Shown one piece after another: positions 11,628 to 54,068 of a DNA stretch of 64,000 nucleotides (positions are counted from its first letter, which is position 1; each line of letters begins with the position of its first letter). A model generated the notes under the pieces. It ran no database searches. It was not told the DNA's origin and was given only the letters and a program-made list of their open reading frames with translations. The DNA is from Ignavibacteria bacterium (GTDB lineage: Bacteria > Bacteroidota > Ignavibacteria > Kapaibacteriales > Kapaibacteriaceae): assembly GCA_016707005.1 (NCBI GenBank), contig JADJIQ010000002.1:741527-805526 (forward strand), written 5' to 3'. A program made the translations under genes and the position numbers.

Positions 11628-11660
11628 TCCAGACCTCACTGAAGAACAACAACTATTCTG

Positions 11661-11734
11661 CGCGCCCAGCAGGATTCGAACCTGCGGCCCGCAGCTTAGA
11701 AGGCTGCTGCTCTATCCAACTGAGCTATGGGCGC
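11661..11734 (-). tRNA. tRNA-Arg (anticodon TCT)
   Basis: Cloverleaf on minus strand: GCGCCCATAGCTCAGTTGGATAGAGCAGCAGCCTTCTAAGCTGCGGGCCGCAGGTTCGAATCCTGCTGGGCGCG; anticodon loop CTTCTAA; GTTCGAATC T-loop. Confidence 0.85.
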
Positions 11735-11744
11735 AACACACGAA

Positions 11745-11880
11745 GTTACGGAGTTACGGAGTTACGGAGTTACGCAGTTACAGAGTTACGGGGTTACAGG
11801 GTTACGGGGTTACTCTAGCACTCAAACACTCTAGCAATCTCATTAGCACATTAACACACTAGCACATTAGCACATTAACT
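11745..11880. repeat. composite tandem-repeat array: GTTACGGA x about 8 followed by degenerate TAGCACTC / ATTAGCAC units
   Basis: Direct reading: gttacggagttacggagttacggagttacgcagttacagagttacggggttacagggttacggggttact then ctagcactc...ctctagcaatctcattagcacattaacacactagcacattagcacattaact; begins 10 nt from tRNA 5' end. Confidence 0.75.
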
Positions 11881-14239: not shown

Positions 14240-15538
14240 ATGGACCTGAAACCCATTCTTGATGAATTGTTCGCGATGACGTTCCATGCCGGCATCAGAC
14301 CCGGCTTGGAGCGCATCACGGAGCTGTGCTCGCACCTTGATGAACCACATCTGCGCTATCCCGTCATCCACGTTGCCGGCACAAATGGCAAGGGCTCTAC
14401 CTGCTCCATGTTAGCCTCGATCCTCACCCACGCCGGGTACAAGGTTGGCCTCTACACCTCGCCGCACATCAGGCAGTTCAACGAACGTATTCGCATCAAC
14501 GGTACAATGATCTCCGATGAGGACGTGGCTCGTCTGGCTCGCCCCTTAATGGACCAGGCAAAGTCGTTCGGTGGAACGTTCTTTGAGGTCACCACAGCAA
14601 TGGCATTCCAATACTTTGCCGAGCGCAGAGTTGAGGTTGCGATCATTGAGACGGGGCTTGGCGGACGTTTTGATGCAACGAACATCGTACAGCCATTCCT
14701 GAGCATCATCACGCAGATCGATATCGACCACACGGAATACCTCGGCACAACACTTCCGCAGATCGCCGGCGAAAAGGCCGGGATCATCAAACAGGGGGCT
14801 CCTGTCGTGATCGGACATCGTTCCGGCATTGTGGTAAATGGACGGCCCGTTCCCGACATCCGAGATGTCTTCGTTCGTAAGGCAGAGTCCGCCAATACTC
14901 CGATCTCGTTCGCAGAAGACACGATCTATGTGGAAATGGATGCGATCCACCCCGACCTTACGATGACGGTGAGTGTTACGAATGACGCGGATCGCAAGTA
15001 CTACACAACCGACCTCTGTGGTCAGCATCAAACGAGCAACATCGCCACAGTGATCGCTGCCCTGCCGGCCATCAGTGAACTGTACTTCGTCGAAGAGCCA
15101 CACATACGAGAAGGACTGCTTCGCGTGAAGTCAACCTCTGGACTTTACGGACGATGCGACCTCATCAATGTAGATCCTTTCACAGTGATCGATGTATCGC
15201 ACAATCCCGGAGGCATTGCTGCCCTGCGAGACACGCTCATCGCCTCCGGCAAAACGCCGAACAGCATGCAGGTGGTCTTTGGTGCGATGTCCGATAAGGA
15301 CGTGGCTGGTATGATCGACGCCATCGCCCCGCTTGCACACACCCTACACCTATGCTCTCCTGCTCTCCCGCGCGCCCTTGCTGTGGAAGAGCTCCTCAAC
15401 CTGGCCCTGTCACGAGGCATCATGAACGCCGTAGCCCATTCGAGCGTGGCTCACGCCTACAAGGCAGCAATAGCTCATGGCCCAACCGTTGTGTGCGGGA
15501 GTTTCCATGTGATCGATGAAGTCATGCTAATGTGCTAA
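14240..15538 (+). CDS. folC: folylpolyglutamate synthase / dihydrofolate synthase
   Basis: P-loop VIHVAGTNGKGST, Mur-ligase family body; start moved to ATG at 14240 (MDLKPILDELF) right after terminator; last 4 codons and TAA stop lie inside ATGTGCTA repeat. Confidence 0.8.
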   Translation: MDLKPILDELFAMTFHAGIRPGLERITELCSHLDEPHLRYPVIHVAGTNGKGSTCSMLASILTHAGYKVGLYTSPHIRQFNERIRINGTMISDEDVARLARPLMDQAKSFGGTFFEVTTAMAFQYFAERRVEVAIIETGLGGRFDATNIVQPFLSIITQIDIDHTEYLGTTLPQIAGEKAGIIKQGAPVVIGHRSGIVVNGRPVPDIRDVFVRKAESANTPISFAEDTIYVEMDAIHPDLTMTVSVTNDADRKYYTTDLCGQHQTSNIATVIAALPAISELYFVEEPHIREGLLRVKSTSGLYGRCDLINVDPFTVIDVSHNPGGIAALRDTLIASGKTPNSMQVVFGAMSDKDVAGMIDAIAPLAHTLHLCSPALPRALAVEELLNLALSRGIMNAVAHSSVAHAYKAAIAHGPTVVCGSFHVIDEVMLMC

Positions 15539-15880
15539 TGTGCTAATGTGCTAATGTGCTAATGTGCTAATGTGCTAATGTGCTAATGTGCTAATGTGCT
15601 AATGTGCTAATGTGCTAATGTGCTAATGTGCTAATGTGCTAATGTGCTAATGTGCTAATGTGCTAATGTGCTAATGTGCTAATGTGCTAATGTGCTAATG
15701 TGCTAATGTGCTAATGTGCTAATGTGCTAATGTGCTAATGTGCTAATGTGCTAATGTGCTAATGTGCTAATGTGCTAATGTGCTAATGTGCTAATGTGCT
15801 AATGTGCTAATTTCGTGTATTAGCTCGTTAGCTAATTAGCACATTAGCACATTAGCACATTAGCACATTAGCACATTAAC
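15524..15880. repeat. foldback tandem array: ATGTGCTA x about 36 (15524-15810), 22-bp spacer, inverted ACATTAGC x 5 (15833-15880)
   Basis: Direct reading; right arm is exact reverse complement unit of left arm; array ends on the base before purH ATG. Confidence 0.9.
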
Positions 15881-25043: not shown

Positions 25044-26536
25044 GCCTCCCAACAACGATCGGCGAGCTGAAGGCAGCAGGATATCAATACGAGTCTGTGA
25101 AGGACGAGCTACGTCGCAACGTGATCGAACGACTGCGAACCAACACGCCCATCTTCTCCGGCATCATCGGATTCGATGACACCGTGATACCGCAGATCGT
25201 GAACGCCATTCTTGCAAAGCACGATATTCTCTTGCTCGGTCTACGCGGTCAGGCAAAGACGCGCATCGCACGTCAACTCACCACGCTACTCGACGAATTC
25301 ATCCCTGTTGTCAAGGGCTCCGAGATCAACGATCATCCGTTGCGCCCCGTGTCCTACCAGGCCGTGCAGCTCGTTGCCGAACACGGAGATGCTACACCGA
25401 TCGAATGGCGTCCGCGCGAGGAACGCTATGGCGAGAAGCTTGCAACTCCAGACGTTAGTGTGGCCGACCTCATCGGAGACATCGATCCGATCAAGGCTGC
25501 CTCGCAACGTCTGCATTATGCACATGAGGGCGCCATCCACTTTGGGATCATTCCGCGCTCCAACCGAGGCATCTTTGTCATCAACGAAGTACCCGATCTT
25601 CAGCCTCGCATTCAAGTAGCGTTGTTCAACATTCTACAAGAGCGCGATATTCAGATAAGGGGCTTTAATGTTCGCCTCCCGATGGACATCGTGATGGTGT
25701 TCACGGCCAACCCTGAAGACTACACCAATCGTGGATCCATCGTTACGCCACTTAAGGACCGCATTCAGTCGCAGATCCTCACGCACTATCCGCGCAGCAT
25801 CGAAGACGGCATGGCCATCACTGCACAAGAATCATGGGTTGAGCGCTCGGGAATGCCCCTTATCATCCCTACGTATCTCAGCCAGGTTGTTGAGTCCGTT
25901 GCCATGATCGCTCGCACGAGCGAATACATCGATCAAACCAGCGGCGTTAGTGCGCGACTCACCATCTCCACGATGGAGAACATGGTCTCCAATGCCGAAC
26001 GTCGCGCCTACATCACCGGCGAGATGATCGTAGCCCCCCGACTCTGCGACCTTGGTCAGGCACTTGCAGGCATCACCGGCAAGGTGGAACTCGTCTTTGA
26101 GGGCGAAGAAGAAGGACCGCAGAAGGTTGCACGAGCACTCATCGGCAAGGCCGTGCGCGAGGTCTTCCGTCTTTCCATGCCTGATCCGAATGTGCGCAGA
26201 GCTCGTAAGGGAACTGCTGAAGAGAAACCCGATCCCTATCAGGCCATCGTCCGGTGGTTCGAACAAGGTCACGTTGTGAACATCGATGACCGAATGACAA
26301 ACGAGGAATTCTACAACGCCCTCATCGCCGTCCCCACACTCGCTCAGCTCGCATCCGTCTCGTTCCATGTAGAGACGTCAGACACTATTCGTCTAGCAAC
26401 CGCTATGGAATTCATTCTGGATGCACTGCATCAACATTCCAAGCTTGCAAAAGACGACAACAGCATGCAGACCACGTACAGAGATCTGGTGGGAAGCATT
26501 TTTACGCCGCCTTTGTCGATGACAGAGGACGAATAG
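25040..26536 (+). CDS. AAA+ ATPase, Mg-chelatase/Lon-related N-domain-like (no protease domain)
   Basis: ATG overlaps ribE stop (ATGA); Walker A LLLGLRGQAKTRIARQL, Walker B GIFVINEVPDL, sensor region; architecture resembles N-terminal ATPase part of the Lon-related protein at 17425; stop TAG is first triplet of the TAGTTAC array. Confidence 0.5.
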   Translation: MSLPTTIGELKAAGYQYESVKDELRRNVIERLRTNTPIFSGIIGFDDTVIPQIVNAILAKHDILLLGLRGQAKTRIARQLTTLLDEFIPVVKGSEINDHPLRPVSYQAVQLVAEHGDATPIEWRPREERYGEKLATPDVSVADLIGDIDPIKAASQRLHYAHEGAIHFGIIPRSNRGIFVINEVPDLQPRIQVALFNILQERDIQIRGFNVRLPMDIVMVFTANPEDYTNRGSIVTPLKDRIQSQILTHYPRSIEDGMAITAQESWVERSGMPLIIPTYLSQVVESVAMIARTSEYIDQTSGVSARLTISTMENMVSNAERRAYITGEMIVAPRLCDLGQALAGITGKVELVFEGEEEGPQKVARALIGKAVREVFRLSMPDPNVRRARKGTAEEKPDPYQAIVRWFEQGHVVNIDDRMTNEEFYNALIAVPTLAQLASVSFHVETSDTIRLATAMEFILDALHQHSKLAKDDNSMQTTYRDLVGSIFTPPLSMTEDE

Positions 26537-26627
26537 TTACTAGTTACTGGTTACTAGTTACTAGTTACTGGTTACTGGTTACTAGTTACTAGTTACTGGT
26601 TACTAGTTACTGGTTACTATTTACTAG
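26534..26627. repeat. tandem array TAGTTAC / TGGTTAC x about 13 (left arm of 4HB cassette 1)
   Basis: Direct reading tagttactagttactggttactagttac... Confidence 0.85.
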
Positions 26628-26691
26628 GTCTGGCGAAGGAGAAGTTTATTGAGGCGTGTCACGTACTGACGTGTTGAGAGCACGTAGCAGG

Positions 26692-27090
26692 ATGGGTCAT
26701 GAACGAGATATCATAAAAGAGCGACTTGTCGCTAGTCCACTGCACATCCTTTCAATCGAGTTTTCTCGAGAGGTGCGCAGTCTTGTACGGAAGGCATTCC
26801 AACATCAGGTTGTTGAGCGAATGCCACTTGATCAACTGTATCGTTCGGGGTCCTCGGTTGGAGCGAATATCCGTGAGAGCAGATATGCAGAATCTCCAAA
26901 GGACTTTGTACATAAGCTCAAGATCGCGGAGAAAGAGCTGGGTGAATTCTTCTATTGGATTGGATTGCTGTCGTCGAAACACGACATTTTTGATGAAGAC
27001 GCTGCCGCTGCCTGCGTCAACAAAGGCACACAAGTCCAAAAGCTACTTTCTTCGATCATTGTAACAACGAAACGCAACAACAGTTTGTAA
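26692..27090 (+). CDS. four-helix-bundle protein (TIGR02436 / 23S rRNA intervening-sequence protein family)
   Basis: Family core ...VVERMPLDQLYRSGSSVGANIRESRYAESPKDFVHKLKIAEKELGEFFYWIGLL; first ATG at 26692 (ORF-track start 26656 is GTG). Confidence 0.65.
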   Translation: MGHERDIIKERLVASPLHILSIEFSREVRSLVRKAFQHQVVERMPLDQLYRSGSSVGANIRESRYAESPKDFVHKLKIAEKELGEFFYWIGLLSSKHDIFDEDAAAACVNKGTQVQKLLSSIIVTTKRNNSL

Positions 27091-27123
27091 TCTCTTACGA
27101 ATTGCAATTCAACGAGGTATGGT

Positions 27124-27152
27124 GTAACTAGTAACTAGAAACTAGTAACTAG
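27124..27152. repeat. inverted array GTAACTA x 4 (right arm of 4HB cassette 1)
   Basis: gtaactagtaactagaaactagtaactag = reverse complement of left-arm unit; ends 2 nt before stop codon of convergent peptidase gene. Confidence 0.85.
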
Positions 27153-32255: not shown

Positions 32256-32389
32256 GCTTTTTAAGCGCCTTTGTAAGCGCCTTCTTCAAGCGCCTTTGTA
32301 AGCGCCTTTGTAAGCGCCTTCTTCAAGCGCCTTTGTAAGCGCCTTTGTAAGCGCCTTTGTAAGCGCCTTCTTCAAGCGCCTTTGTAAGC
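32256..32389. repeat. tandem array of 12/13-bp units AAGCGCCTTTGT / AAGCGCCTTCTTC x about 10 (left arm of 4HB cassette 2)
   Basis: Direct reading. Confidence 0.85.
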
Positions 32390-32440: not shown

Positions 32441-32899
32441 ATGTCTCTTCTTCAACTCCGCATGTATAAACGGGCCGGCGAGATCTCTGATGAGGTTGCT
32501 CTGTTTGCAAGTGCATGGCCGCACATCCATCGGAACACGATCGGAGATCAGATCATTAGAGCGGCGGATTCGATCTCAAACAACATTGCTGAAGGGTATG
32601 GCAGAACAGCAACAGGAGAACGCATCCAGTTTCTGATGTATGCCGATGGCTCGATCTCAGAAACAAGAAACTGTCTACATAGAGCATTCGGCCGGAACCT
32701 CATCGACGCAGACACCAACGCTCGACTTCAACAGCGCCTCGTATCATTGTCGATTAGTATCGTAGAGTTCGCACATGCTATAATTGAAAGAGACCCATCA
32801 TACAAGGGTCCATTCCGCGAACGAATCGCAAAACGCCGCGCCTGGCTTGTGAAGAAGCTCGCCAAGAACGGCGCAGCTCCCCCAAACGAACAATCTTAA
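32441..32899 (+). CDS. four-helix-bundle protein (TIGR02436 / 23S rRNA intervening-sequence protein family)
   Basis: Canonical family motif ...IIRAADSISNNIAEGYGRTATGERIQFLMYADGSISETRNCLHRAF...; ATG start; 152 aa. Confidence 0.8.
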   Translation: MSLLQLRMYKRAGEISDEVALFASAWPHIHRNTIGDQIIRAADSISNNIAEGYGRTATGERIQFLMYADGSISETRNCLHRAFGRNLIDADTNARLQQRLVSLSISIVEFAHAIIERDPSYKGPFRERIAKRRAWLVKKLAKNGAAPPNEQS

Positions 32900-33160
32900 A
32901 GAAGGCGCTTGCAGAAGGCGCTTGCAGAAGGCGCTTGAATAAGGCGCTTGAATAAGGCGCTTGAACAATGCGCTTGAACAAGGCGCTTGAACAAGGCGCT
33001 TGAACAAGGCGCTTGAACAAGGCGCTTGAACAAGGCGCTTGAACAAGGCGCTTAACGAAGGCGCTTAGAGAAGGCGCTTGAACAAGGCGCTTAGAGAAGG
33101 CGCTTGAACAAGGCGCTTGAACAAGGCGCTTAACGAAGGCGCTTGCAGAAGGCGCTTACA
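32900..33160. repeat. inverted tandem array of 13-bp units (A/G)AAGGCGCTTGAAC and variants x about 20 (right arm of 4HB cassette 2)
   Basis: Reverse complement GTTCAAGCGCCTT matches left-arm unit family; last unit overlaps the pcrA stop codon (cttaca). Confidence 0.85.
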
Positions 33161-39448: not shown

Positions 39449-39515
39449 CTAAGTTGACTTCTCCTTAGCCCTTTTGCATGTTGCATGTCACGTTTCCCTT
39501 CAACGGAGGCACTAC

Positions 39516-39782
39516 ATGATCATGGTCAATATGCACACAGCAAAGTCAACCCTCTCACAGCTCGTAGAGGAAGCTCTCATGGGAGAGGATGTGGTTATTG
39601 CCCGCAACGGCAAGCCCGTCGCAAGGCTTGTGGCTTTCATTCCGGTTGACACATCGAAGCTTCGTCCCATTGGACTTGGGTGCACAGGAGTGCCGTTAAT
39701 CGACAATTCTGAGTTTGAGCTTTTGTCAGCCACAAACCCAGATGTCTACGAAGAGAACCCCAACGATCCGTTGAACGAATGA
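39516..39782 (+). CDS. type II antitoxin, Phd/YefM family
   Basis: MVNMHTAKSTLSQLVEEALMGEDVVIARNGKPVARLV; 4-nt overlap with downstream PIN gene. Confidence 0.7.
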   Translation: MIMVNMHTAKSTLSQLVEEALMGEDVVIARNGKPVARLVAFIPVDTSKLRPIGLGCTGVPLIDNSEFELLSATNPDVYEENPNDPLNE

Positions 39783-40174
39783 ACAAGTCACTTCTCGTTG
39801 ACACTCATACTCTTCTCTGGTACGACGATGAACCAGACAAGCTATCGGGTGCGGTTCGCAAGGTGCTTCGCAACCCCAATGCGACAATATTTGTTTCTCC
39901 TATAAGCCTCTACGAGATCGCTCAGAAGGTGCGTCGCCAATCATTGCCATCGGCAACGCATCTCGTCAACGAGATCCACGTTCGCCTTCGTTTGTATGGG
40001 TTTACTATTCTACCGGTCAATGATCACCATGCACTCCGAGCCGCTAACCTCGATTGGGATCACCGTGATCCATTTGATCGAATGATCGCAGCTCAAGCAC
40101 TCGAAGAACATTGCGTCCTCGTTACAAAGGATGTTGCCTTCGCGGGCGTGAGCGGGCTGAAGACACTTTGGTGA
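39779..40174 (+). CDS. vapC: type II toxin VapC (PIN-domain RNase)
   Basis: LLVDTHTLLWY (Asp1), ...SLYEI..., FDRMIAAQALEEHCVLVTKD (distal acidic residues). Confidence 0.8.
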   Translation: MNKSLLVDTHTLLWYDDEPDKLSGAVRKVLRNPNATIFVSPISLYEIAQKVRRQSLPSATHLVNEIHVRLRLYGFTILPVNDHHALRAANLDWDHRDPFDRMIAAQALEEHCVLVTKDVAFAGVSGLKTLW

Positions 40175-40198: not shown

Positions 40199-40291
40199 CG
40201 TCATGGGCTAGCGAACTTTCGCCCCTACGGGGCTGATCGAATGTTCGCTATTCGCTATTCGCTGCCTCGACTTCGCTCGGCATGACGTTCG
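40199..40291. repeat. perfect 8-bp-stem palindrome (CCCATGAC tac GTCATGGG) followed by TAGCGAAC / hairpin GCCCCtacGGGGC / degenerate TTCGCTA x 5
   Basis: Direct reading between convergent vapC and the 40292 gene. Confidence 0.5.
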
Positions 40292-47082: not shown

Positions 47083-47808
47083 TTGCACATGCACCGACTC
47101 TTGCTCGTCGTCCTCTTCGCTACAACCTGCTCCCTCTCGGCACAAGACTGCGGCAACCTCCCATGGGAGGCCAACCTCACGTATCGAGCGAACAGCATCG
47201 AAAGCGCCTTTCTACGGGACATGTCCAAGGTAACCTCCGATGCTCTGCTGCCCCTTGCCATTGGTGTACCGGTTGGACTCTATGTGTACGGCATGATCGC
47301 ACCGGAAGGGAGCAACCTTGCAGACAAACGGTATGCTGCGGAATCCGGACTCCAGACGTTTGTGACCATGGGCCTCACGTATGGCGTTGTGATCGTTCTG
47401 AAGAACGTGATCGACAGACCAAGGCCGTATGAAGCGTATCCCGGATGCATTCAGAACTACCGTAATGATTCCGACGGATCCATGCCTTCCGGACACTCTG
47501 CCGGCTCGGCGGCCCTTGCCACCTCGCTCATTCTCAGATATCCGCAGTGGTATGTGGTAGCCCCTTCCGTTGCCTATGCCCTCTATACCGGTTTTGCCCG
47601 ACTCAATCTTGGCATGCATTATCTCACCGATGTGCTCGTGGGCTACGCAATCGGCATAGGAATCGCGCTTGGTGTGAACGCCCTCAACAATGAGTTGTTT
47701 GACCTGGCCGATCCAATTCTGCCCAATGCCGCTAACTCACAAACGATATTGTTGAACTTCACGCCAACACAGTCCATTCCTGTCTTCTCGATGAGCATCC
47801 CGCTATGA
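47083..47808 (+). CDS. PAP2-family phosphatase
   Basis: KxxxxxxRP (KNVIDRPRP), PSGHS, SRxxxxxHxxxD (ARLNLGMHYLTD). Confidence 0.7.
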   Translation: MHMHRLLLVVLFATTCSLSAQDCGNLPWEANLTYRANSIESAFLRDMSKVTSDALLPLAIGVPVGLYVYGMIAPEGSNLADKRYAAESGLQTFVTMGLTYGVVIVLKNVIDRPRPYEAYPGCIQNYRNDSDGSMPSGHSAGSAALATSLILRYPQWYVVAPSVAYALYTGFARLNLGMHYLTDVLVGYAIGIGIALGVNALNNELFDLADPILPNAANSQTILLNFTPTQSIPVFSMSIPL

Positions 47809-48593
47809 TGCGCCTCGCTACCGTACAGTTCTGTCCCGCGTACAGAGATCCGGATGCCAATACCGACTTCATTGTGGAGACCATTGCCAGTACTGAAGCG
47901 GACGTCATCGTCTTTCCCGAACTCGCCACCAGCGGATATTTCTTTGTCACCCGCGAAGAAGTAGGGGGCATTGCAGAGCCCCTTACCGGACCTCATATCA
48001 CCCGCATCATCAACGCTGCAAAAACTCACGGTCGCATAGTGATCTGCGGTTTTGCTGAGCGTGATGGAGACCGTCTCTTCAACTCAGCGGTGATTGCCGG
48101 ACCGAACATCGAAACACAGGTCTATCGCAAAACGCATCTGTTCTACAAGGAGACGCTGTGTTTTGACGAGGGCGATAGCGGTTTCTCCGTTGTTCATCTA
48201 CCCCATCTCGATTGCAATCTCGGCGTGATGATCTGCTACGACTGGCGTTTTCCTGAAAGTGCCCGGACCCTTGCACTCAAGGGAGCTGACGTGATCGCCT
48301 GCCCATCAAACCTCGTCACCCACATCTGGCGCATGGCCATGCCCGTACGCGCCCTCGAGAACAAGGTCTACCTGGCAGTGGCCAACCGCTACGGCACAGA
48401 ATCCAACACCGAAGAAGACGTCACCTTCAACGGCCAAAGCGTGATCTACTCCTACAACGGAGACGTACTGGCAAGCGCCGATGCAGTTGGCACAACCACA
48501 CTCATCACCGAGATCGACCCCACCGCCACCCGCAACAAGACATTCAATTCTGTTAATGACATCCTTGCCGATCGCCGCCCAGAGAGATACTAG
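47805..48593 (+). CDS. carbon-nitrogen hydrolase (nitrilase superfamily)
   Basis: Glu in FPELATSGY, Lys, Cys in ICYDWRFPE; ATGA overlap with PAP2 gene; stop TAG is first triplet of the downstream repeat. Confidence 0.8.
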   Translation: MMRLATVQFCPAYRDPDANTDFIVETIASTEADVIVFPELATSGYFFVTREEVGGIAEPLTGPHITRIINAAKTHGRIVICGFAERDGDRLFNSAVIAGPNIETQVYRKTHLFYKETLCFDEGDSGFSVVHLPHLDCNLGVMICYDWRFPESARTLALKGADVIACPSNLVTHIWRMAMPVRALENKVYLAVANRYGTESNTEEDVTFNGQSVIYSYNGDVLASADAVGTTTLITEIDPTATRNKTFNSVNDILADRRPERY

Positions 48594-48717
48594 TTACTGG
48601 TTACTAGTTACTGGTTACTAGTTACTTGTAACTGGTAACTGGTAACTACTAACTAGTAACTAGTAACTAGTAACTGGCAACTAGTAACTAGTACTTAGTA
48701 ACTAGTAACTTGCAACT
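48591..48717. repeat. foldback tandem array: TAGTTAC/TGGTTAC x 5 then inverted TNGTAAC x about 13, no cargo
   Basis: Direct reading; centre at about 48626; ends on base before murC ATG; same unit family as array at 26534. Confidence 0.9.
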
Positions 48718-50085
48718 ATGACGTTTTCCTCCGTTCGACACATCCACTTCGTTGGCATTGGTGGCATTGGCATGAGCGGGATCGCCGAGATCCTTCTTTC
48801 GCAGGGGTTTGTTGTCAGTGGCTCAGACCTTAACCGAAGTGAAGTAACGGACCACCTTGCAACTCTTGGGGCGCGCATCTGCATTGGGCATGATGCACAA
48901 CACGTAGATAACGCCGAGGTAGTGGTCTACTCCAGTGCCGTTCGTCCACAGGAGAACCCCGAGACGTTGTTCGCCTTGGAGCGCAAGATCCCGATCATCC
49001 GTCGGGCAGAGATGCTCAGCGAGGTCTCCCGACTGAAGTATTGTCTGGCCATTGCCGGCACTCACGGCAAGACAACCACCACGTCCATGTGTGGCATCGT
49101 GATGATGAAGGCTGGCATGGACCCAACGGTCATTGTTGGCGGACGTCTCAAGGGACTTGGTGGCACGAATGCCCGGCTTGGACAGGGCGACTGGATCGTA
49201 CTCGAGGCCGATGAATACGACCGTTCCTTCCTCCAGCTCTTGCCCACCATTGCTGTGATCACGAATGTAGAGGCGGATCACCTTGACATCTATAGTGACC
49301 TCGACGATATAAAGGGGGCGTTCATCGAGTTCTCAAACAAGGTGCCGTTCTATGGCACTGCAGTGGTCTGCTTAGATGATCCGGGCGTGCGCGCCATCCT
49401 GCCGTCCATCAAACGGGTGGTTGTCACCTACGGCATGTCTGCGCAGTGTGATGTGCGCGCTGCAGACATCAGCTACAACGAACGCTCCTCCACCTATACA
49501 CTCGTACACAAGGGGAGCCCCCTTGGAGAGATCGAGCTTCACGTACCGGGTGACCACAACGTCCGCAATTCCCTTGCTGCTTGCGCAACTGCTCTTTTGT
49601 GCGGTGTTCCGTTCGATGTGATCAGGGATGGTCTTGCAGAGTTCGGAGGCGTGTTCCGTCGGTTCGAAGTCAAGGGAGAGGTAGGGGGCATCCTGGTCGT
49701 AGACGACTATGCCCACCACCCTACCGAGATCCGCTCAACGCTCACCGCGGCCCGACGTGGTTGGAAGCGTCGGATCGTTGCCGTGTTCCAGCCGCACACC
49801 TATACCCGAACCAGGGATTTCTACGCCGAGTTCGCCACTTCCTTTGACGAGGCCGATGTTTTGATCCTCACAGACGTTTATCCGGCACGCGAAGAGCCAA
49901 TTCCGGGGGTCAATGGGAAGCTTATCGCGGACGCTGCCAGGGATGCCGGACACCGCAACGTGCACTATGTAGAAGCGCCTGCAGACATCCCGGCACTGCT
50001 CAAGACCCTGGTTTTGGAGGGCGATATGGTGCTCACAATGGGTGCCGGAGATATATGGAAAGTAGGGTCGGCACTGCTCGCCTGA
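48718..50085 (+). CDS. murC: UDP-N-acetylmuramate--L-alanine ligase
   Basis: HFVGIGGIGMSGIAEIL and Mur ligase motifs. Confidence 0.9.
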   Translation: MTFSSVRHIHFVGIGGIGMSGIAEILLSQGFVVSGSDLNRSEVTDHLATLGARICIGHDAQHVDNAEVVVYSSAVRPQENPETLFALERKIPIIRRAEMLSEVSRLKYCLAIAGTHGKTTTTSMCGIVMMKAGMDPTVIVGGRLKGLGGTNARLGQGDWIVLEADEYDRSFLQLLPTIAVITNVEADHLDIYSDLDDIKGAFIEFSNKVPFYGTAVVCLDDPGVRAILPSIKRVVVTYGMSAQCDVRAADISYNERSSTYTLVHKGSPLGEIELHVPGDHNVRNSLAACATALLCGVPFDVIRDGLAEFGGVFRRFEVKGEVGGILVVDDYAHHPTEIRSTLTAARRGWKRRIVAVFQPHTYTRTRDFYAEFATSFDEADVLILTDVYPAREEPIPGVNGKLIADAARDAGHRNVHYVEAPADIPALLKTLVLEGDMVLTMGAGDIWKVGSALLA

Positions 50086-52288: not shown

Positions 52289-53577
52289 AAAGCCCCATGC
52301 GCACACTCAACATCTTCTTCATGTGCCTCCTTGTACTTGGCATCCCTACCTCTGTTTGGGCCCAAGACTCCATGGAAGGTATCATTGCCATCGTTGGTCG
52401 TGAGATCGTTCTCAAGTCCGATGTAGACGGTCAGATGGAGATGTTGGCCCAGCGTGATCCGCGCGTAGACCGCAAGGACGTCAAACTGCGTCAAGCAATC
52501 CTCGATCAGCTCATCAACGAGCGCCTCATCATGACCAAGGCCATAGAGGACAGCATTGAGGTAACAGATGAAGAGATCACGCAGCGCATGGAATATCAGA
52601 TCCAAACACTGATCCAGCAATTCGGCTCAGAGAAGCGTATCGAAGACATGTACGGCATGAGCATGATGCGCATCCGACGTGAATTCCGCGATGAGATCCG
52701 CAAACGTCTTCTCGTGGAGAAGATGCAACAGAAGCAATTCGGTCAGGTCAAGGCCTCCCGTGCAGATGTGGAAGCGTTCTACGCCAAATACCGCGACTCC
52801 TTGCCTAAGGTACCGGAACGTGTAGACCTCTTCCACATCGTGAAGTACGTGAAGGCCTCCGACGAAAAGAACAAGGAAGCATACACCCTTGCCATGCGTA
52901 TCAGAGACTCCATCGTAAAAGGGGGCTCCTTCAGCGACTTCGCACGCAGGTATTCCGGAGATCCGATCTCTGCATCGAACGGTGGCGACCTCGGAACCGT
53001 TGATCGCGGCAAATTTGTCCCGGCTTTCGAAACCGCTGCATTCAACCTGTCCCCTGATGAGATCTCTCAACCAGTCGAGACGCCGTTCGGATGGCACGTT
53101 ATTCAGCTCATCAGCAAGACAGCAACCTCGATGACTGCGCGACACATCCTCATTCGCGTAGGTCAGAGCGACGAAGACCGAGAACGCGTTAAGACCGAAC
53201 TCGTTGCACTCAAACAACGTGTTGAAAAGGGCGAGAACTTTGAGACACTCGCTCGTGAATTCAGTGATGAAAAAGAGACCCAAGGCTTCGGTGGATCAAT
53301 GGGTCAGATCGAACTCGCCCGTCTTCCGGAAGAGATGCAAACATCTCTCAATGCCATGAAGGACGGTGCTGTCTCCGACCCTTCACCGTATGCCGCAGAC
53401 CCAACTAAGCCCGGCTTCCACATCCTCTACCGCAAGCGCATCATCCCTGCTCACACCCCGTCCGTCGACGAAGACTACAAACAACTCGAACAAATGGCAT
53501 CCTTCGAAAAGAAGCAACGCCTCGAACAAGAGTGGGTGCAGAAGCTGCGGAAAGAGTTGTATTGGGAAACGCGTTAG
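52285..53577 (+). CDS. surA: SurA-type chaperone / peptidyl-prolyl isomerase
   Basis: Signal peptide MKSPMRTLNIFFMCLLVLGIPTSVWAQ; SurA N-domain plus two parvulin domains (FGWHVIQLI, GFHILYRK); ATGA overlap; stop TAG is in the repeat. Confidence 0.75.
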   Translation: MKSPMRTLNIFFMCLLVLGIPTSVWAQDSMEGIIAIVGREIVLKSDVDGQMEMLAQRDPRVDRKDVKLRQAILDQLINERLIMTKAIEDSIEVTDEEITQRMEYQIQTLIQQFGSEKRIEDMYGMSMMRIRREFRDEIRKRLLVEKMQQKQFGQVKASRADVEAFYAKYRDSLPKVPERVDLFHIVKYVKASDEKNKEAYTLAMRIRDSIVKGGSFSDFARRYSGDPISASNGGDLGTVDRGKFVPAFETAAFNLSPDEISQPVETPFGWHVIQLISKTATSMTARHILIRVGQSDEDRERVKTELVALKQRVEKGENFETLAREFSDEKETQGFGGSMGQIELARLPEEMQTSLNAMKDGAVSDPSPYAADPTKPGFHILYRKRIIPAHTPSVDEDYKQLEQMASFEKKQRLEQEWVQKLRKELYWETR

Positions 53578-53618
53578 AGTGCTAGAGTGCTAGATTGTTA
53601 GAGTGCTAGATTGTTAGA
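53573..53618. repeat. tandem array of units TAGAGTGCTAGATTGT x about 3 (arm of 4HB cassette 3)
   Basis: gttagagtgctagagtgctagattgttagagtgctagattgttag. Confidence 0.85.
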
Positions 53619-53621
53619 CCC

Positions 53622-53990
53622 TCATCTGGTTTTTGGGGGTCGTTGTTGATTGCGAACTGCGGTAGATATAGACGAACTCATCAGCCGTCCAAGCTCATCA
53701 AGAAGACCATCGATCGTTTGTTTCCATGAGCTTGGCACTCCATTTCTTTCGGTGAAATGGATAGAGAGAGATTCGGCTTCTCGTAACTCCTTATGAGCAA
53801 GCTTCAGTTTGTGTATGAGGTCTCGCCGACTTTGGCAGCTCTGCGCTTCAGAGATGTTATTCATGACAGCTAGGGCGACACCCTCCGTCTGATTTCCAAG
53901 ACGAAACAGATGTTGACTGTTTACGATCCTCACAACTTCTAACAGATAGATCGATAACAGACGCGATTTTATCATTGATGGGGACGTCAT
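53622..53990 (-). CDS. four-helix-bundle protein (TIGR02436-like, divergent)
   Basis: ...NSQHLFRLGNQTEGVALAVMNNISEAQSCQSRRDLIHKLKLAHKELREAESL aligns with the NIAEG...F..L.IA.GS..E motif region of the other two copies; track start 54032 is a GTG inside the repeat, first ATG at 53990. Confidence 0.55.
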   Translation of the reverse strand: MTSPSMIKSRLLSIYLLEVVRIVNSQHLFRLGNQTEGVALAVMNNISEAQSCQSRRDLIHKLKLAHKELREAESLSIHFTERNGVPSSWKQTIDGLLDELGRLMSSSISTAVRNQQRPPKTR

Positions 53991-54024
53991 CCTTCTATGT
54001 GCTACTAACACCACAGAACGTGAC

Positions 54025-54068
54025 TCTAGCACTCTAACAATCTAGCACTCTAACAATCTAGCACTCTA
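54025..54068. repeat. inverted array CTCTAGCACTCTAACAAT x about 2.5 (other arm of 4HB cassette 3)
   Basis: Exact reverse complement of 53573 array unit; ends 6 nt before stop of OMP gene. Confidence 0.85.

Follow-up and report, generated by a model that had tools for sequence, protein, structure and literature searches.

Why should two genes that overlap or abut in many related bacteria be kept apart, in one lineage, by a spacer made of seven-base repeats? The question is raised by a 64,000-nucleotide stretch of contig JADJIQ010000002.1 (hereafter the window), which belongs to a Kapabacteria/Ignavibacteria-labelled metagenome-assembled genome (MAG) from activated sludge. Here a C-N hydrolase (nitrilase-family) gene (47805..48593, forward strand) is followed by murC, the gene for UDP-N-acetylmuramate--L-alanine ligase (48718..50085, forward strand; TIGR01082, E 4e-162), and the 127 bases at 48591-48717 form a foldback of seven-base repeats. 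We read this spacer, with a probability of roughly 0.6, as a hairpin array that lacks an open reading frame (ORF), resembles the intervening sequences (IVSs) of 23S rRNA, has been spread or copied between gene junctions and would fold in the operon transcript.

A foldback of heptamer repeats between the nitrilase-family gene and murC

The array begins within the upstream gene. Its left arm (48591..48625, forward strand) consists of five units in which TAGTTAC and TGGTTAC alternate, TAGTTAC standing first, third and fifth. The nitrilase-family gene, whose reading frame ends in AGA TAC TAG, takes its stop codon from the first of these units (TAG, 48591-48593); sequence and parsing agree with the original prediction that five forward units supply this stop. 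Parsing of the right arm (48626..48717, forward strand) gave about 13 reverse-complement units, TAGTAAC and its variants, in the order TTGTAAC, TGGTAAC (twice), TACTAAC, TAGTAAC (three times), TGGCAAC, TAGTAAC, a 6-nt TAGTAC, TAGTAAC (twice), TTGCAAC and a final T. The degenerate units among them are the first and the last, the single TACTAAC and TGGCAAC, and the 6-nt one. The predicted number of inverted units is therefore correct, but the arm had also been said to end exactly at the murC ATG, and a single T separates it from the start codon at 48718.

Tandem Repeats Finder (TRF) describes the spacer as one array of period 7 with 18.6 copies and a score of 141. The heptamer is near-palindromic, amounting to ACTAGT plus one base, so that a single base tells forward units from inverted ones, GT(T)AC versus GT(A)AC. 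Each arm is also able to pair with itself. Stop codons occur in all six frames of the spacer, no ORF lies between the arms, and the loop is 0-2 nt long. Six independent assemblies, of which two are long-read MAGs and four short-read metagenome contigs, contain the same 181 bases with one single-nucleotide polymorphism, and this agreement rules out an assembly artefact. We also rejected a CRISPR array, as the units are contiguous and have no spacers between them.

The spacer is predicted to fold into one long hairpin

Folding of the region as RNA and as DNA predicted a long imperfect hairpin that takes up the whole spacer (48588..48713, forward strand), with energies of -68 kcal/mol for RNA (z -7.4) and -33 kcal/mol for DNA (z -6.4). 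The arms measure 41-64 nt and are 75-88% complementary, their predicted pairing spans about 55-60 bp, and the last ~12 nt 5' of the murC AUG are unpaired in the predicted fold. Orthologous spacers with different units, from two relatives described below, fold too (L012, -92.8 kcal/mol, z -11; L016, -72.9 kcal/mol, z -6.9). Sense RNA is more stable than antisense in 7/7 ORF-less foldbacks tested, six of which are versions of the murC junction, by 0.8-14.6 kcal/mol. Through the TAG-to-TGG variants of both arms, G.U pairs arise in the sense strand. These folding models suggest that RNA structure may be under selection at the murC junction; in general, such selection is not established.

Scanning 47500-49500 against Rfam gave no rRNA match and solely generic miRNA-hairpin matches well under their gathering scores, and a known RNA family was rejected. 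Neither a sigma-70-type promoter nor an intrinsic terminator was detected in 48300-48900. A terminator is also disfavored by the stem, which is A+T-rich and is not followed by a run of T.

Arrays at the junction are inserted, change length and are replaced

For comparison we took 80 loci from other species that carry a nitrilase orthologue, together with contigs from closer relatives. They identify the spacer as an insertion, for many relatives have no gap between the two genes: in about 20 of these loci, a 4-nt overlap (ATGA) joins the nitrilase stop to the murC start, or the genes directly adjoin. Arrays at this junction are confined to a clade with at least ~64% nitrilase identity. The strain at 99% identity (L162) has three forward and 13 inverted units, which is the window array minus exactly TAGTTACTGGTTAC, and at 96% (L165/L166) we found four forward and about seven inverted units. 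At 88-89% (L016/L017/L011), four to five forward units and nine to 13 inverted ones enclose a unique loop of 52 bp. At 79% (L012), ten units of the type (T/G)AGTTAC are followed by 9 bp and about 15 TCGTAAC/TGGTAAC units, the change of unit being matched in part between both arms. Array length thus changes between strains by whole units. Finally, the junction of a relative at 66% identity (L028) reads TAGTTAC x7, a PF05635 gene on the opposite strand, CCTCGTA x7 and TAGTAAC x9; this relative sits in a different clade of the nitrilase tree, with spacer-less taxa in between.

Other families of repeats occupy the same junction in strains that are just as close. At 98% identity (L163/L164) there is a 41-bp one-armed array of five CACATTAG units, and at 90-95% (L160/L161) there are 8-mers of the type ACTCTA(A/G)C on contigs that end within the array. 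The array of L163/L164 ends in CACATTAAC directly before the ATG, which is the terminal variant seen at 15819-15880 and 11841-11880 of the window, while the units of L160/L161 belong to the family found at 54023-54068 and 11812-11840. Among strains that are 90-99% identical, then, three unit families occur at this junction, and all three also occur elsewhere in the window. The array family at the junction has been replaced by others in near-identical strains. The C terminus of the nitrilase-family protein varies with the array family (..ERY, ..LYRD or ..LYS before the stop), and we therefore take the insertions to be separate events at slightly different points.

In more distant relatives the junction holds other unit families, a MazEF-like pair or a DUF2442 gene. 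The spacers of L029, L030, L032, L037, L038 and L014/L015 contain either a two-gene insert that resembles a MazE/MazF-type pair, judged from reading the translations alone, or a DUF2442 gene with a precomputed Pfam match. Because of such inserts, the nitrilase-murC junction appears to be a general hotspot for small insertions. A further contig (L101, ~1856-2530, 58% G+C) has a cassette with a four-helix-bundle (4HB) gene and GTACTGG/CAGTACC arms directly upstream of murC, next to a different upstream gene. The 5' side of murC seems to be a recurrent site for elements of this kind.

These comparisons bear on the idea that the spacer regulates murC in cis. One base separates the array from the ATG, the window, L014 and L165 share a conserved TTGCAACT beside this start codon, and a role as regulator sites has been proposed for TAACTGA arrays that lie just upstream of start codons in Beggiatoaceae, Cyanobacteria and Bacteroidetes (PMC4679880). 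However, many relatives have no spacer at all and close strains have unrelated units before the same murC, which makes a regulatory element unlikely. Array length does not vary among the six assemblies, which come from different samples, so the array is not hypermutable, and the search for a sigma-70-type promoter or terminator was negative as described above. We consider a role in murC regulation highly improbable. A phase-variable contingency repeat was likewise rejected, as length is identical in the six assemblies and differs only between strains that are 96-99% identical.

The same unit family flanks a four-helix-bundle gene 22 kb away

Allowing at most one mismatch, TRGTTACTRGTTAC matches the window 26 times against 0.01 expected, and all matches fall at 26534-27151 and 48591-48711. 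The first locus, which we call cassette 1, opens with a left arm of 13.4 TAGTTAC/TGGTTAC units (26534..26627, forward strand), and here too the upstream gene ends at the first TAG of the arm. The arm is followed by a 4HB gene (26692..27090, forward strand) that matches TIGR02436, PF05635 and PDB 2RLD (E 9e-17), and then by a right arm of 4.1 GTAACTA units (27124..27152, forward strand) that abuts the stop of a convergent peptidase gene. The murC spacer and this locus have a 33-bp exact direct match in common. Together with the confinement of all TRGTTACTRGTTAC matches to the two loci, this match bears out the claim that they carry one unit family. Given so long a stretch of identity, the suggestion that the two loci could recombine with each other is plausible. 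The proposal that the murC spacer is a cargo-less member of the same cassette family also holds, since the unit flanks a 4HB gene both at 26.5 kb and, in L028, at the nitrilase-murC junction itself.

The earlier proposal that such arrays are excision footprints fared less well. Under that proposal, a 4HB cassette once stood at the junction, its gene was lost and the arms were joined. L028 would then represent the cargo-bearing state, with the same unit at the same junction, and the loops are graded in size, from 52 bp (L011, L016, L017) through 9 bp (L012) to 0-2 bp in the window. The ACTAGT present in both arms is a direct microhomology that would permit deletion of a loop by slippage, the junction GTTACTTGTAAC is one base off the perfect palindrome expected from arm joining, and the ORF of the Coxiella IVS has been reported as decaying (PMC4990558). 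However, neither the cargo of L028 nor that of cassette 1 is significantly similar to the 52-bp loop. Local alignments were no better than those of shuffled sequences, which led us to reject the loop as a cargo remnant; by eye there is a weak resemblance between its CCACATTTGTG and the cassette motif TGTCACGTTTG. L028 is separated from the window lineage on the nitrilase tree by the spacer-less taxa. Its 4HB protein is 43% identical to that of cassette 1, and an extra, unpaired CCTCGTA array lies beside its gene, which suggests that the cassette was inserted later, nested within a foldback already present. Finally, ORF-less arrays of other families stand at the same site in strains that are 90-98% identical. 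We regard an excision footprint as unlikely.

These ORF-less and even one-armed arrays suggest instead that arrays move or are copied without an ORF, and we lean toward the view that they can spread without the 4HB gene. An alternative that requires no movement is an ordinary long simple-sequence repeat (LSSR), of the short tandemly repeated repetitive (STRR) type, that arose by slippage in place, its arms having diverged by one base per unit, and that has neither a relation to 4HB genes nor a function. It would fit the one-base difference between forward and inverted ACTAGT-plus-one-base units, the occurrence of the TGG variant in both arms on the same strand, and the whole-unit length differences between strains. 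Heptamers are the commonest long simple-sequence unit in bacteria according to the portion of PMC4679880 that cites Mrazek 2007, and solo TAGTTAC arrays without a 4HB gene occur in 14 viral contigs. Against it, a 4HB gene lies between arms of the same unit family, with the same variants, at a distance of 22 kb, as does another at the murC junction of L028, and close strains have wholly different unit families with different junction points in the nitrilase C terminus. The arms of other families are truly inverted without being near-palindromic, and in one case, the CATTAGCA family, a pattern of internal variants is common to different loci. In-place slippage can account neither for the exchange of one unit family for another nor for terminal variants common to several loci, and we judge this alternative to be very unlikely, if less so than murC regulation. 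A phage origin was also rejected: none of the arrays in the 14 viral contigs adjoins a 4HB gene, and three viral 4HB matches were found.

Inverted arrays accompany PF05635 genes in other bacteria

A scan of metagenome contigs with the proteins of cassette 1 and L028 yielded 41 loci with G+C contents of 35-58%. The scan loci, the three cassettes of the window and L028 together gave 29 non-redundant 4HB cassettes, in which we counted arms as matching when they had equal period, were reverse complements and differed by at most two mismatches per unit. Such arrays lie on both sides of the gene in 20/29 cassettes, and about five more have arms of unequal period. Arrays cover 23.7% of the 220-bp flanks, compared to 1.3% of the rest of the same loci. 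Units of the window recur in this set, TAATGTGC in L114 and AGTTACGG in L118; in L114 (35% G+C), the 4HB gene is flanked by the unit of the window array at 15525-15878.

Plasmids of cultured bacteria provide further cases. In a tblastn search, matches were mostly from Nostoc, Anabaena and Planktothrix, and also from Bernardetia and Treponema. An annotated 4HB gene with flanking heptamer arrays was present in 8/8 inspected regions (Nostoc, Anabaena, Aulosira, Dolichospermum, Planktothrix, Bernardetia and Treponema). Clear reverse-complement pairs were seen in 6/8, the layouts in Anabaena and Treponema being more complex. The paired arms are AATTCAA-type and TTTTGAA in the Nostoc flagelliforme and Aulosira plasmids, AAGTCGG and ACTTCCG in N. 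punctiforme, ATTAGTG x15 and TCACTAA in Bernardetia, GTAATTC and AATTACG in Dolichospermum, and AAATCGT and ACGATTT in Planktothrix. 4HB-flanking arrays occur widely in Kapabacteria, Bacteroidota and Cyanobacteria and in one spirochaete. The original prediction would have been undermined by a lack of further TAGTTAC-family arrays and of any 4HB association; instead, more such arrays were found in relatives (L011, L012, L016, L017, L028, L162 and L165), and the 4HB association is strong and general. In the searchable library, we found no paper that ties PF05635/TIGR02436 to flanking tandem arrays, save for the heptamers of the Coxiella IVS.

Several individual loci add detail. In Anabaena cylindrica PCC 7122 plasmid pANACY.01 (L138), the 4HB gene and its heptamer arrays lie between cas2 and cas1. 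'23S rRNA IVP' has been listed among CRISPR-linked proteins (PMC10910872), a listing that this placement may explain. The cassette of Nostoc punctiforme PCC 73102 plasmid pNPUN01 (L139) immediately precedes xisH-xisI and has tnsA nearby; a similar taxonomic distribution of heptamer arrays and XisH/XisI has been noted (MacGregor 2015, PMC4679880). Treponema saccharophilum plasmid pTS1 (L167) has a 41-unit heptamer array as well as inverted arrays around an annotated 4HB gene, so the architecture reaches Spirochaetota. Two AT-rich relatives (L127/L131) have orthologous 4HB cassettes at the same site, just upstream of a gene whose N terminus, read from sequence alone, resembles glucose-1-phosphate adenylyltransferase. 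Their proteins are very similar and their arm units differ, which indicates a fast turnover of units.

Relation to known elements

The closest parallels are the IVSs of 23S rRNA. In Coxiella, an ORF for S23p, a four-helix-bundle protein, occupies the loop of a stem made by 28-bp terminal inverted repeats, RNase III cuts within this stem, and the 5' region has three to four tandem heptamers (GACAGAT) whose number depends on the strain (PMC4990558). The murC spacer resembles this element in its tandem heptamers and in inverted arms able to form a long stem, and the PF05635 ORF is present at the sibling locus and in L028. ORF-less IVSs also exist. Unlike an IVS, the spacer lies between protein-coding genes and not in a 23S rRNA helix (9, 25 or 45), and the arms of these elements are arrays of 5-36 units of 7-13 nt in place of a unique 28-bp stem. 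Unlike an ORF-bearing IVS, the murC copy has no PF05635 (S23p) ORF in its loop.

The second parallel is with the tandem heptamers of cyanobacteria and other groups. STRR units include CCCCAGT, TTGGTCA and CAACAGT. Intergenic heptamer arrays have been described in Beggiatoaceae, Cyanobacteria and Bacteroidetes, with reference to work on 'long SSR' arrays (MacGregor 2015, PMC4679880). The murC spacer is intergenic and consists, beyond chance, of head-to-tail units within the 5-11 nt that define STRR/LSSR arrays. Like STRR, LSSR and TAACTGA arrays, the arrays studied here often abut start or stop codons, include several unit families per genome, are patchy across lineages and break short-read assemblies. 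Those arrays have been described as direct, whereas paired inverted arms around a PF05635 gene were not found reported, and MacGregor 2015 (PMC4679880) does not link heptamer arrays to PF05635/TIGR02436 genes. The spacer also differs from the strict STRR class (STRR1-3 of heterocystous cyanobacteria) in its Kapabacteria host and its unit, TAGTTAC.

Finally, repetitive extragenic palindromes, bacterial interspersed mosaic elements and hairpins resembling miniature inverted-repeat transposable elements (MITEs) are likewise multicopy intergenic palindromes that may form mRNA hairpins between operon genes. They differ from the present arrays, whose arms are short tandem units, for which neither a target-site duplication nor a RAYT (the tyrosine transposase associated with such palindromes) or other transposase was seen, and which are replaced by other families at one site. 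A MITE or transposon remnant was rejected because we saw no target-site duplication by eye: the spacer is preceded by GAGATAC and followed by ATGACG, and these flanks contain no direct duplication.

How might such an array arise and act? In our reading, that of an ORF-less IVS-like hairpin array, arrays would travel as copies from one gene junction to another, whether through an insertion akin to transposition or because other loci serve as templates for repair or gene conversion, and the loop may or may not contain a 4HB gene. Once established, they would grow and shrink through replication slippage. The nitrilase-murC transcript, or single-stranded DNA, can fold into a single long hairpin, with the murC AUG left unpaired. 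If the two genes are cotranscribed, as we infer, the long duplex would probably be cut by RNase III in the manner of IVS stems, and the cut would separate two cistrons that are presumably translationally coupled where the spacer is absent.

Some observations weigh against this reading. No transposase, target-site duplication or other mobility feature was found, and one-armed arrays exist (L163; window 11740-11877), so hairpins are not obligatory. A near-palindromic unit would also allow the two arms to stem from a single direct array, through one base change per unit plus homogenization. Units and proteins are weakly linked (Spearman 0.26, Mantel p 0.002), with G+C content as a confounder, and the proteins of L028 and cassette 1, which stand between arms of the same unit family, share the 43% identity noted above. 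Across the 4HB cassettes, G.U-compatible arm mismatches are equal on both strands (19 versus 19), and whole-flank duplex energies favor the sense strand weakly (19/29, p 0.03). Arm complementarity is 84% overall and often perfect. Given the absence of a strand signature across cassettes, complementarity could be kept at the level of DNA and not selected in RNA.

We also offer a wider proposal, tentatively and at less than even odds. PF05635 4HB genes with inverted arrays would form one widespread, unrecognized class of hairpin cassette, to which 23S IVSs and many cyanobacterial STRR or 'long SSR' arrays would belong as special cases or as derivatives that lack an ORF. Its arrays would be actively copied between junctions, and the 4HB protein, a pentamer, may target either the units or the hairpin. 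Active copying would explain why different unit families occur at one site in near-identical strains. IVSs and STRRs are known kinds of element; gene-junction hairpin arrays tied to PF05635 genes are apparently undescribed.

A single array is a modest finding. It exposes a general architecture, a 4HB gene between inverted short-unit arrays, that ties together three puzzles so far unexplained: where 23S rRNA IVSs come from and what their S23p/four-helix-bundle ORFs do, how the cyanobacterial STRR heptamer arrays described in 1990 arose, and why heptamer arrays are patchy in Bacteroidota and Beggiatoaceae. It is also a tractable case of array turnover, with ORF-less arrays exchanged at a single essential-gene junction among strains that are 90-99% identical. 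Several long-read MAGs from one activated-sludge Kapabacteria lineage make it a concrete system for studying array movement and RNA processing. On the practical side, the arrays break short-read assemblies and rewrite gene 3' ends, and they may yield spurious 'CRISPR-associated' calls for PF05635 proteins.

Other arrays and cassettes in the window

TRF showed that several other intergenic spacers of the window are filled by short-unit arrays. Two further cassettes resemble cassette 1. Inverted 12/13-mer arrays at 32257-32389 and 32902-33157 surround a 4HB gene at 32441-32899 (forward strand), and inverted 8-mer arrays at 53575-53618 and 54023-54068 surround one at 53622-54032 (reverse strand); both sets of arrays abut the stop codons of the two neighboring genes. 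All three cassette genes (~130-150 aa) score above the curated cut-offs for TIGR02436 ('four helix bundle protein') and PF05635 ('23S rRNA-intervening sequence protein').

Arrays that lack an ORF occur at two further places. A foldback at 15525-15878 comprises 36 TGCTAATG units that are 100% identical, plus 7.5 inverted units, and fills its whole spacer, supplying the stop of the upstream gene and ending at the purH ATG. Three one-armed arrays stand side by side at 11740-11877 (ACGGAGTT x9, ACTCTAGC x3.6 and CATTAGCA x4.6), next to tRNA-Arg(tct) (11660-11734, reverse strand). Two of these three unit families recur elsewhere in the window, and the third flanks a 4HB gene in L118.

Among ten small window ORFs that were scanned, no trans-acting factor was recognized, and we found no XisH/XisI and one Phd/PIN pair. 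This pair, a Phd/YefM antitoxin and a PIN-domain toxin (39474-40174), has short 7-mer repeats at its ends (39474-39488 and 40244-40263). Lastly, the G+C-rich 4HB cassettes (L028, L097, L101, L102, L104-L109 and window 26664-26676) have a conserved motif, ~rTGTCACGTTT, just after the upstream array and 30-45 nt 5' of the ATG, sometimes within GTCACG-N5-CGTGAC. This motif may be a promoter or an operator.

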